Translations under genes and position numbers: made by a program
Assembly: GCA_963818965.1 (NCBI GenBank)
Contig: CAWFUG010000009.1
Coordinates: 416,001 to 480,000 of the forward strand
DNA: 64,000 bases
Origin: an uncultured Verrucomicrobiae bacterium
GTDB lineage: Bacteria > Chlamydiota > Chlamydiia > Chlamydiales > Rhabdochlamydiaceae
Reading direction: 5' to 3'
Notes under the pieces: generated by a model
Told to the model about the DNA's origin: nothing
Databases searched by the model: none
What the model saw: the letters and a program-made list of their open reading frames with translations, nothing else
Shown here: positions 12,981 to 34,423 of the stretch, one piece after another
Numbering within the stretch: the stretch's first letter is position 1
Layout: every line of letters begins with the position of its first letter

Positions 12981-13066
12981 AACCTTTTTTCTCTCTGTGG
13001 TTTCCCCTCTCTGTGGTTAAAAAAATTTCACCACAGAGAGGGGAAACCACAGAGAGAAAAAAGGTT
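12981..13066. repeat. Repeat family A, copy 2 (perfect 37-bp stem, 12-nt loop)
   Basis: 12981-13017 is the exact reverse complement of 13030-13066; it contains the intact IS110 target CACCACAGAGAGGGGAAACC. Confidence 0.95.
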
Positions 13067-32254: not shown

Positions 32255-32574
32255 GTCTTAATACGAAGCCTTGTAAAAAACGAACTCAGTGCTTTTGTTT
32301 TCCTTTAATGAAGTGTATAGAATTTCTTCATCTTTTCCTTTTGGGATTTTTATTACTCCGAAATTAGGATCAAAAAAGAAATTTTGTCCTTTGTTTTTGA
32401 AGTAGACGCAAGTATGGCCTTCATCTTTTTTTGGATCGCCCTGCTTGAAAATATAGAATCCATTTGGTTGGATTTTGCTTTGTTGCTGAAATTCACCACA
32501 GAGCCTTGGGAAGGGGGGCGTCTCGGTCCTTAATTTTATACTCTACCCCTTCCATCATCTAGATGTAACTTGGG

Positions 32575-32760
32575 TCAAAATCGGATCCAATCTATAATTC
32601 CTCCTCGTAATGTAGAGGCCGAGCTATCATTGGCGCTTGTAAGCCCGGCACAGAGAATGGCACGCAAAAGGTCACGTAAGCATCGCTGGTGAGATCGTAA
32701 GATCATCCCGTTTAGGAGAATGTTGGCTTAACACCTTTTGCACATTGCACTTAACCCAAG
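32575..32760 (+). ncRNA. Putative IS110 bridge RNA (left non-coding end); boundaries approximate
   Basis: CACAGAG-AATG (32649) matches target flank plus core; TTAGGAG-AATG (32712) matches IS right end plus core; 9-bp stem 32664-72/32733-41; GATC-GTAA-GATC hairpin. Confidence 0.65.
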
Positions 32761-32768
32761 GAATTTTC

Positions 32769-34126
32769 ATGAACACCGAAATCGTGAATCAATCATCATC
32801 CATTAAAATTATCAATCCGAACGCTGCAGGAATAGACATAGGGGCTTCCTCCCATTTCGTTGCAGTGCCCGAAAACAGAAGTAAAGAGTTTGTTAAAGAA
32901 TTTGGGTGCTTTACCCCAGATATTGAAAACATGATTACATGGTTAAGGGAATGCAAAATCAAAACAATAGTTATGGAATCGACTGGATCCTATTGGATAC
33001 CGGTCTTTGAAATGCTGGATCAAGCCGGATTTGAGGTAAAATTGGTAGATGCCCACCATGTAAAGAATGTAAGAGGACGCAAGTCAGATGTAATAGACTG
33101 TCAGTGGCTTCAACAATTGCACACCCACGGCCTACTCTCGGCAGCTTTCCGTCCAGAAAATGAGATAGTAGAGCTAAGAAGTTTCCTCAGACAAAGGTCC
33201 ATGCTCATTGAAACAGCCTCTATGCATATCCAACACATGCAAAAGGCACTCGTTCAAATGAACCTACACCTGAACAATGTGATAAGTGACATCACTGGAG
33301 CAACAGGTATAGCTATAATAAGAGCGATTGTGTCAGGGGAAAGAAACCTCGATAATTTGGCAAAACTAAGAGACCCTCGGTGTAAACAACCTGAATCTGT
33401 AATCAGGAAATCTCTTCAAGGCAACTACCGACCAGAACACCTATTTGCCTTAAAACAAGCCCTTGAAGCCTACGACTTTTTCCAAAAAAAAATCGCCGAA
33501 TGCGACAACGAGATAAAAAAAAACTCGAAGTGCTCTCCCCAATAAAAGAGACACCCTCACTGACAAAAAAGCCAAAAAAGCTAAAAAAATACGAATACGC
33601 TTTTAATGTAGCCGACCACCTAAAACAGCTCATAGGAACGGACCTAACAACGGTACCCGGGATAGACGTAAGCACTGCTCTGAAGTTAATCTCGGAAATA
33701 GGAACAAATATAAGAAAATGGCCAACAGAAAAACACTTCTGTGCCTGGCTAGGATTATGTCCTGGCACCAGAATATCCGGAGGAAGGCGAATTAGTAGCC
33801 ACACCTCGCATTGTACCAATAAGGCAGCGATTGCATTGAGAATGGCAGCAAGCTCATTATACAAAAGCAAAACAGCACTTGGAGCTCACTTAAGACGCAT
33901 GAAAGCACGTATGGGTCCTGTTGAAGCAGTGACGGCAACAGCCCACAAAATGGCAAGGGCCCTTTATCAGATGATACTGCGAAAAGAAGACTTTAGAGAA
34001 GCTGGCTCAGACTTTTACGATAAACTACACCAAGACAAAACACTGAAATTTTTGAAGAAGAGAGCCGCCTCCATGGGATATGTCCTAACTGAAATGGAAA
34101 AAATGAAAAGCGCTGTGCACCAATAA
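32769..34126 (+). CDS. IS110 transposase/recombinase, split by a frameshift in an A9 run (33515-33523)
   Basis: GIDIG, MESTG, KSDVID (DEDD) in ORF1; VPGID...LGLCPGTRISGG (catalytic Ser), ATAHKMAR in ORF2. Confidence 0.92.
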
Positions 34127-34423
34127 CTTAGCTTGAAGTTACTTAGGAGAGGGGAAACCACAGAGAGGAAATTCATATTAAAAAGTTTCCTCTCTGTGGT
34201 TTTTCCTCTCTGTGGTGAAATTGCATCTATTCAGAATGGAATAATGGGGAGCTAGATTAGCTCCTCATGGATGATGCAACAACGCCGAGACCGTCTCTAA
34301 TCGCTTGACTTCTTTACCTCGCTTCGCATAAAAGTGGGTATGAACCTATCCTTATAAAAAATTTCAGTCGATTTTCGGGGATGGTTTTGTAGCACTTTTG
34401 TTTTTGCGGGGGCTTTAAAGTTT

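Follow-up and report, generated by a model that had tools for sequence, protein, structure and literature searches.

What makes an insertion sequence (IS) of an environmental chlamydia come to lie exactly inside one of the palindromic repeats of its own host? The question is raised by a window of 64,000 nucleotides from an uncultured member of the Rhabdochlamydiaceae (assembly GCA_963818965.1, contig CAWFUG010000009.1, positions 416,001 to 480,000), in which an IS110-family element of 1646 bp interrupts a hairpin repeat. The analysis of this locus and its relatives indicates that the element is likely a recently active member of the IS110 group, with a target chosen by a bridge RNA and a recombinase made through recoding on a run of nine adenines (A9). 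The coordinates of its features within the window are collected in Table 1.

The left junction (32503/32504) reads ...GAAATTCACCACAGAG followed by CCTTGGGAAGG, and the right junction (34149/34150) reads ...GAAGTTACTTAGGAG followed by AGGGGAAACCACAGAGAGG. Re-reading at both ends gave the same letters as an earlier note on this DNA, which had also claimed that removal of the insert (32504-34149) regenerates an intact copy of the repeat at 13029-13056. The empty site was rebuilt by a script that joined 32494-32503 to 34150-34167, and the resulting 28-mer is identical to that copy; the exact 28-mer occurs 18 times in the 2.24-Mb assembly. Folding of the rebuilt site as DNA gives a hairpin of 33 bp with an energy of -33.7 kcal/mol. 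The bases GAG are common to the left flank and the right end of the element, and the boundaries are ambiguous over these 3 bases, as had been noticed before. There is no target duplication beyond a short core, and excision gives back the empty site exactly, as is expected of the IS110 family. Terminal inverted repeats are absent; the ends, CCTTGGG... and ...CTTAGGAG, are unrelated. The non-coding left end measures 265 nt (before the ATG at 32769) and the right end 23 nt (after the stop at 34126), and a long left end with a short right end is the layout of the IS110 group. The first open reading frame (ORF1) matches PF01548 DEDD_Tnp_IS110 (E 4.8e-21, 75.6 bits against a cut-off of 29) and the second (ORF2) matches PF02371 Transposase_20 (E 9.5e-13). 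By these sequence features the element is assigned to the IS110 family, IS110 group.

The interrupted sequence belongs to a genuine repeat family of this genome. The unit CCACAGAGAG occurs 377 times in 2.24 Mb, against ~4 expected, and forms ~150 multi-unit clusters, the commonest layout of which is two units, a loop and two inverted units (pattern FFRR 47, RRFF 17). Many members have longer outer arms (...GCGTTGTTGC...TATGCAATTT / AAATTCAGCTA...). Two other arrangements of the family were observed. At G000:C1:251227-251541 a palindromic element with long outer arms is nested in the arm of another hairpin repeat, and the repeats therefore insert into each other; at G000:C9:1585-1916 a unit of ~130 bp is present three times in tandem, each with a degenerate hairpin repeat and flanking sequence. 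In the window, positions 34134-34223 gave sub-threshold Rfam matches to microRNA precursors (MIR6024 and others); the long perfect stem of the hairpin repeat is responsible for these, and the microRNA reading was discarded as a false lead.

A second copy of the element is present at G000:C2:48825-50470 and is 100% identical over 1646 bp. It is preceded by the same CACCACAGAG and followed by ATGGAAAACCACAGAGAGG, which places it in a different member of the repeat family. The sequence CACCACAGAG has 168 sites on the two strands of the 2.24 Mb, and the probability that a random second insertion falls there is ~4e-5; chance is excluded because the second identical copy follows CACCACAGAG too. The two copies might also stem from the duplication of a segment that already carried the element, as the elements are identical and the first 10 bases on the left and the hairpin on the right are similar; outside the repeat, however, the left flanks are unrelated (84 of 163 aligned columns alike), and the right halves within the repeat differ between the copies (AGGGGAAACC vs ATGGAAAACC). 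Moreover, the right outer arm in the window resembles the reverse complement of the left outer arm of the second copy (47/73), so that the element has the opposite orientation with respect to the larger palindrome. We consider a duplication very improbable; the two copies are independent, recent insertions at one position. No third copy was found in the assembly with a word-9 blastn search and a Pfam search of the genome. The sequence GGAG followed by ATGG at C9:412008 was considered as a third right junction and rejected, being merely a degenerate repeat unit (CACGACGGAGATGG).

Whether the same rule holds beyond this genome was assessed with related elements. A protein search yielded thousands of homologues, and 49 related DNA loci were obtained from genome contigs and 80 from metagenome contigs; the nearest related elements with a named record are from a metagenome-assembled genome (MAG) of Parachlamydia sp. 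and a Chlamydiae MAG. A DNA search of 40 related genomes gave one partial match of 66% (G036), and the element was not found in the other 39. A close clade of 19 loci shares 72-79% protein identity. Its readable left junctions end in CCACAGAG in 10 of 13 cases, the others being CCACGAAG (L053), CCACCGAG (L061) and ACATAGAAG (L069). All right ends are of the form ...AAGTTACT(T/C)AGGAG, and the right flanks are mostly tandem CACAGAG-type units with an inverted partner further on. The earlier note had raised the question whether other copies all sit directly behind CACAGAG in the repeat family, and had named unrelated targets or different ends as the observation that would speak against it. In the assembly, the one further copy keeps the ends of the copy in the window and occupies the corresponding position in a different repeat member, and the relatives share the ends and mostly also the target type. 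The observation of the earlier note is confirmed and its interpretation is supported.

The left ends of the 19 elements contain a conserved block of ~150 nt, which ends ~15 nt before the start codon. Its structure was derived with RNAalifold and inspection of the 19-element alignment. The minimum-free-energy structure of the single left-end sequence was rejected as misleading, since it is not better than that of shuffled sequences, and the comparative structure alone was used for that reason. The RNA consists of two similar modules, each with an internal loop, and each module has the order outer stem, 9-nt 5' side ending in CAU, inner hairpin (beginning UGG and ending CYG), linker base, 7-nt motif, AA and outer stem. 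Among the 19 close relatives 99.2% of the cells in the alignment pair, with compensatory changes in 11 of the 28 pairs; when the partners were slid by 1-3 columns, 26-45% paired. A covariance model of the structure gave 88 matches over 100 further loci, with the RNA ahead of the transposase and on the coding strand; in these, 95.2% of the cells pair and 18 of the 28 pairs show compensatory changes; this second alignment was fitted to the covariance model and leans toward the structure. Covariation thus establishes the paired structure, and the left end can be taken to encode a structured RNA with two similar internal loops. As judged from sequence, these correspond to the target loop and the donor loop that the bridge RNA of an IS110 element should have, except that the partner of a second donor guide was not matched.

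The 7-nt motifs of the two modules are the guides that connect the RNA to the DNA. In the window, the left flank closes with the 7 bases of the loop 1 motif (CACAGAG), and the element itself closes with those of the loop 2 motif (TTAGGAG). Within the close clade the target 7-mer and the flank are identical at 10 of 13 loci, among them L069 (both ATAGAAG). The donor 7-mer agrees with the right end without exception (16 of 16), even where L055, L059 and L069 share a T-to-C change. In the distant clade, 63 of the 67 loci that could be tested have the donor 7-mer where it is expected behind the gene (swapped controls: mean 2.0, maximum 5), and the target 7-mer was found 30-260 nt upstream of the RNA, mostly at 75-83 nt, in 52 of 66 (swapped: mean 0.9, maximum 4). 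Many loci are near-copies and locus counts overstate independence, so counts of distinct guides are fairer: counted in this way, the match holds for 17 of the 26 target guides and 12 of the 13 donor guides. The matching target guides include some that are unrelated to CACAGAG (ACATCAG, AACCGAG and AGGTGAG). Guide and flank have thus changed together over ~100 relatives.

These counts bear on an alternative in which the recombinase recognises the hairpin structure of the repeat and the guide-like 7-mers are secondary or coincidental. The target is indeed a near-perfect hairpin, most relatives also lie in palindromic CACAGAG repeats, and, in the part of the report available, a stem-loop in the target of ISPpu10 is described as an additional determinant of specificity (10.64898/2026.03.19.712850). 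Furthermore, both insertions took the outer unit of a repeat despite the presence of 903 CACAGAG sites in the genome. The type used, in which CACAGAG runs on into A[GT]GG[GA]AAACC, accounts for 155 empty and 2 occupied sites. Were any CACAGAG acceptable, the chance that both copies fall in this type would be ~0.03, which hints weakly at an additional role of the right flank or the hairpin context in the choice of site. Recognition of structure in place of sequence is nevertheless quite unlikely, as guide and flank change together over the 17 distinct target guides and swapped controls gave next to nothing. Structure may act in addition to base pairing, not in its place.

The guides also bear on the position of the exchange. 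The earlier note had taken GAG as the core; this stands as the maximal overlap at the present locus but is probably not the functional core, as relatives often share just AG. In L069 a flank in ...GAAG is combined with an end in ...GGAG, and in the distant clade a flank in ...AGAG with an end in ...GAAG. Because the relatives share just AG and all guides end in AG, the exchanged core is probably the dinucleotide AG, with the third shared base incidental. The circle junction is predicted to read ...GTTACTTAGGAG followed by CCTTGGGAAGG.

Several related loci show the same elements in other settings. On a contig of a Chloroflexales MAG (L015, 1-3609) a chain of three related elements is present, in which the target guide of element 2 (TTAGGAG) equals the donor guide and right end of element 1, and the target guide of element 3 (ATGAGAG) equals the donor guide and right end of element 2; each element seems to have inserted directly behind the end of the preceding one. 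In L063 (1618-1700) the right end is followed by AG and a ~75-nt piece of another left end (hairpin and GTAACTT), with no second RNA, which suggests that an occupied site was re-used, leaving a junction of right end, AG and left end in linear DNA. Many of the distant loci (L004-L132, mostly with Acidobacteriota or Pyrinomonadaceae record titles) have the target guides CACAGAG, CGCAGAG or CACGGAG, and these soil acidobacterial relatives lie in tandem (A/G)CACAGAG-type repeats; similar short repeats thus appear to be targets of this IS lineage in a second phylum.

The 5' sides of the two loops were compared with the DNA as candidates for a second guide in each loop. For loop 1, the 5' side was set against the right flank in the register in which its invariant C pairs with the core G. 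In total, 264 of 456 positions pair with the own right flank versus 209 when the flanks are permuted, and none of 5000 permutations reached 264; neighbouring registers were without signal. Loop 1 is therefore, as far as the sequences tell, a candidate for holding a second guide that could pair with the right flank. In loop 2 the 5' side is similar to the 5-7 bases directly behind the left-end terminal hairpin, read in the same sense: the longest common substrings with the own left end sum to 300 versus 266 for permuted pairs, and none of 2000 permutations reached 300, whereas the antisense comparison with the left end was not significant. One possibility is that the donor is read in folded form. 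The terminal hairpin is followed by GTAACTT (left-end positions 62-68), which with AAGTTAC at the right end makes a 7-bp inverted repeat that brackets the whole region, and the outermost 4-5 bases of the left end differ freely from one relative to the next. The segment CCCAAGG (left-end positions 252-258), which is complementary to the first 7 bases of the element, was tried as second donor guide and rejected because it is not conserved in relatives.

The transposase gene is split in both copies of the element. Searches of each half against the PDB with phmmer gave no match; a profile built from eleven full-length relatives matched the transposase of IS621 (8wt6_A) with an E value of 7.8e-9. 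In this alignment the motifs MESTG and SDVID and the serine of RISGG fall on the catalytic E, D..D and serine (YESGS) of IS621, and GIDIG, with the first D, was seen as an invariant motif only. The equivalent of the catalytic serine is located in ORF2, and the A9 split separates the nuclease (DEDD) domain from the serine domain. At the junction ORF1 reads ...GAG AUA AAA AAA AAC UCG and ORF2 reads AAA AAA AAA CUC GAA in the -1 frame, and one added A in the run would fuse the two.

The split is shared by most relatives. The best 120 protein clusters (71-100% identity) include 107 that are shorter than 300 aa, nearly all of which end in ...IKKN plus 0-20 residues; ten have 440-452 aa and contain ...IKKKL..., and three are intermediate. 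Among the 19 related DNA loci the run is A9 in 18 and A10 in one; 16 are split in the same -1 relation, and the 3 that are in frame have reached this by three separate routes (A10; A9 followed by G; an extra T ahead of the run). Both frames are fully open in 12 of the split loci; contig ends cut 2, and 2 have further breaks (L033 and L039). Distant relatives (42-64% identity) have a single frame and no A-run. In ORF2 of 13 split elements, dS was finite for 12 pairs, in which the ratio of nonsynonymous to synonymous substitutions (dN/dS) has its median at 0.12 and does not exceed 0.146; dS was saturated in the other 66 of 78 pairs, for which dN is 0.19-0.31. The median for ORF1 is 0.05. The downstream frame is thus kept under purifying selection, and since an untranslated frame would not be, the sequences point to A9 as a programmed recoding site. 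Transcriptional slippage on A9 is the likely route, and ribosomal -1 slippage on A AAA AAA is possible.

In place of the single uninterrupted transposase frame catalogued for IS110, the locus has the marks of a slippage or frameshift element, namely a slippery A9 at the frame junction, a conserved split and a selected downstream frame. A survey of the IS elements of Amoebophilus describes its IS110 members as single-ORF (PMC3196728). A literature search, with subscription journals and ISfinder outside its reach, found nothing relevant on recoding by transcriptional slippage or frameshifting in IS110, and the name IS110 is absent from Baranov et al. (2005; PMC1088944) and from the accessible portion of Atkins et al. 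(2016; PMC5009743), the latter of which cites an IS630 of Roseiflexus. As in the slippage and -1 frameshift elements treated in those papers, nine A's lie between overlapping frames whose fusion is the full transposase, and the site is conserved among diverged copies; the difference is that here the shift parts the nuclease from the serine domain of a putative RNA-guided recombinase.

A dead relic would look similar in some respects; the A9 frameshift would then be a deletion that inactivated the gene at a hot spot of mutation, and the copies would be inert passengers. Homopolymer runs lose bases easily, the gene is broken in both copies, and some of the split copies elsewhere could well be dead, as the further breaks in L033 and L039 suggest; moreover, there are two copies only while ~155 sites of the used type are free. 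We regard a relic as unlikely, as it does not account for the recurrence of the split (16 of the 19 diverged loci; 107 of the nearest 120 protein clusters), for the 12 split loci with both frames open, or for the dN/dS of ~0.12 in ORF2 among split elements. In addition, two copies that are 100% identical in different repeat members indicate a recent move.

Several other observations weigh against a recently active element guided by its own RNA. The target guide differs from the flank by one base in L053, L058 and L061. The candidate second target guide forms 3 of 6 possible pairs with the site in the window and 4 of 6 with that of the second copy, and its signal in the close clade alone is weak (p ~0.03-0.04, uncorrected for 15 combinations of register and length). 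No guide was found that would be antisense to the opening 1-6 bases of the left end, in that no RNA column covaries with these bases and the 5' side of loop 2 does not fit them; the likeness of this side to the segment behind the hairpin is not explained by the IS621 model. The left end folded alone is no stabler than its shuffles (z -0.27). A promoter scan found no full sigma-70 site, an Rfam scan of 32300-34400 gave no bridge RNA family (the sub-threshold microRNA-like matches being to the hairpin repeat), and no RNA run among the sequencing runs contains the stretch. A TATAAT just upstream of the conserved RNA is a possible -10 box; by eye, TAnnAT-like hexamers lie at the same position of the alignment in relatives. 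Just 2 of the ~157 sites of the used type are occupied, in a draft assembly (12 contigs, 87.85% complete) that may conceal further copies. Finally, neither a circle junction nor an empty allele nor a length variant of the A-run was seen in contigs from four soil and peat metagenome runs, these contigs being only 151-261 nt long and lying inside the element or its flank, with no read or contig across a junction.

Table 1. Features of the IS110-group element and its target site in the window (64,000 nt).
Feature	Position	Strand	Remarks
Intact copy of the empty-site 28-mer	13029..13056	+	
Left target flank CACCACAGAG	32494..32503	+	Forms the outer unit of the repeat's left arm; also precedes the second copy; ends in CACAGAG (identical to guide 1), with the final AG as probable core
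IS110-family insertion sequence	32504..34149	+	No terminal inverted repeats; exact empty site on removal
Left-end terminal hairpin (GGGAAGGGG ... CCCCTTCC)	32508..32553	+	Arms (32508-32516 with 32546-32553) covary in relatives
GTAACTT, subterminal inverted repeat of right-end AAGTTAC	32565..32571	+	Conserved across the close clade
TATAAT, possible -10 box	32592..32597	+	Just upstream of the conserved RNA; alignment by eye
Structured core of bridge-RNA-like non-coding RNA	32618..32741	+	Comparative structure
Loop 1, 5' side (AGCUAUCAU), candidate second target guide	32622..32630	+	Antisense to core G and right flank
Loop 1, 3' side, putative target guide CACAGAG	32649..32655	+	Same sense as left flank and core
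Loop 2, 5' side (AAGCAUCGC)	32678..32686	+	Covaries in the same sense with the left-end segment after the terminal hairpin
Loop 2, 3' side, putative donor guide TTAGGAG	32712..32718	+	Same sense as the last 7 bases of the element
ORF1, 258 aa, DEDD RuvC-like domain (GIDIG, MESTG, SDVID)	32769..33545	+	Ends 7 codons after the A-run
A9 run (AT AAAAAAAAA CTC), putative recoding site	33515..33523	+	Junction of the ORF1 and ORF2 frames
ORF2, -1 frame, Transposase_20 with RISGG serine	33515..34126 (open from 33500)	+	
Right end AAGTTAC-TTAGGAG	34136..34149	+	Subterminal repeat and the 7 bases matched by the donor guide
Rest of the interrupted hairpin repeat (AGGGGAAACCACAGAGAGGAAA, loop, TTTCCTCTCTGTGGTTTTTCCTCTCTGTGGTG)	34150..34220	+	

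The system that is best suited for comparison is IS621, an IS110-group element of E. coli with a bridge RNA (Durrant et al. 2024, PMC11208160; Hiraizumi et al. 2024, PMC11208158), taken here as described in the accessible text of the two papers. The earlier note had drawn a parallel to the targeting of repetitive extragenic palindromic elements by IS621. The parallel holds, and it extends to the mechanism, because the left end contains a bridge-RNA-like structure with matching guides. Both elements have a recombinase with DEDD and serine domains, a long left and a short right end, and a left-end non-coding RNA with two pseudo-symmetric loops, one for the target and one for the own ends; both have inserted in a repetitive extragenic palindrome and restore the empty site without a scar. 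In IS621 the left target guide (LTG, 9 nt) and left donor guide (LDG) share the sense of the DNA that they represent, namely the left target and, within the right end, the left donor, and their pairing partner is the bottom strand; the right target guide (RTG, 4-7 nt) and right donor guide (RDG) pair with the top strand, each loop has the order stem, L-guide, stem-loop, R-guide, and the core is CT. The present RNA would likewise have one guide for each DNA strand with the core within the pairing; its 9-nt 5' side has the length of the LTG, its 3' side of 7+2 nt that of the extended RTG with the handshake guide, and its guides end in AG, as the RTG and RDG of IS621 end in AG opposite CT.

The differences are equally clear. 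The proteins are very distant, and only the profile reaches 8wt6_A. The sense guides are located 3' of the inner hairpin, whereas those of IS621 are 5' of it (according to the text of the papers, not their figures or the sequence), and the core would be AG on the RNA-sense (coding) strand and CT on the other, unlike the order and core of the IS621 type. The guide order appears to be the mirror of that in IS621, going by those descriptions; and because a reading of the opposite strand looks like IS621, the RNA and gene body appear to be inverted with respect to the recombination site. The second donor guide fails to match the left end at its first bases, an A9 run interrupts the transposase, and the host is an environmental chlamydia. 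In Pseudomonas putida, ISPpu10 and ISPpu9 are IS110-family elements in stem-loop targets resembling repetitive extragenic palindromes (10.64898/2026.03.19.712850; PMC12288879), and in the parts of these reports available they resemble the present element in having several insertions into copies of one conserved palindromic intergenic sequence; here, by contrast, the repeat is an AT-rich CCACAGAGAG hairpin in another phylum, and the system is known from sequence alone. The landing of IS110 elements in host palindromic repeats by means of a bridge RNA is thus already known, and new are the host and the repeat family, not the principle. Beyond the earlier note, the analysis adds a bridge-RNA-like structure supported by covariation with a reversed order of guides, a conserved putative recoding site and an odd contact with the donor hairpin.

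The pathway that we favour would run as follows. The 265-nt left end would be transcribed into a bridge RNA that picks the target: the guide in loop 1 would represent the target flank in sense and TTAGGAG in loop 2 the last 7 bases of the element, presumably in a circular intermediate, and cleavage and exchange would take place at the AG. As the host hairpin repeat contains CACAGAG, the genome would offer ~155 empty landing sites of the used type in addition to the two that are taken. The recombinase would be made only when A9 is read with a -1 shift between the DEDD and serine domains, either because the RNA polymerase adds one A or because the ribosome slips, and the recoding would probably hold the level of active enzyme low; the element may still be active at present. 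A wider and more tentative proposal, which we would not yet favour, is that these elements form a chlamydia-centred clade of bridge recombinases unlike IS621. Its enzyme would be produced by A9 slippage only, as a limiter of dose, its RNA would have mirror guides with an AG core and a second donor guide that reads the left end past the hairpin (a folded donor and perhaps a folded target), and the palindromes of the host would serve as harmless landing pads.

Genomes of obligate intracellular chlamydiae usually contain few insertion sequences. The present one appears to carry an RNA-guided element that is aimed at its own palindromes, with ~155 sites free, and hits at these should spare genes. 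If confirmed, the dependence on A9 would be a natural throttle on a bridge recombinase, and an instance of recoding in a family for which we found none reported. Bridge RNAs are under development as tools for genome editing, and a loop geometry as in IS621 with reversed guides and a donor contact across a DNA hairpin would widen the space for their design.

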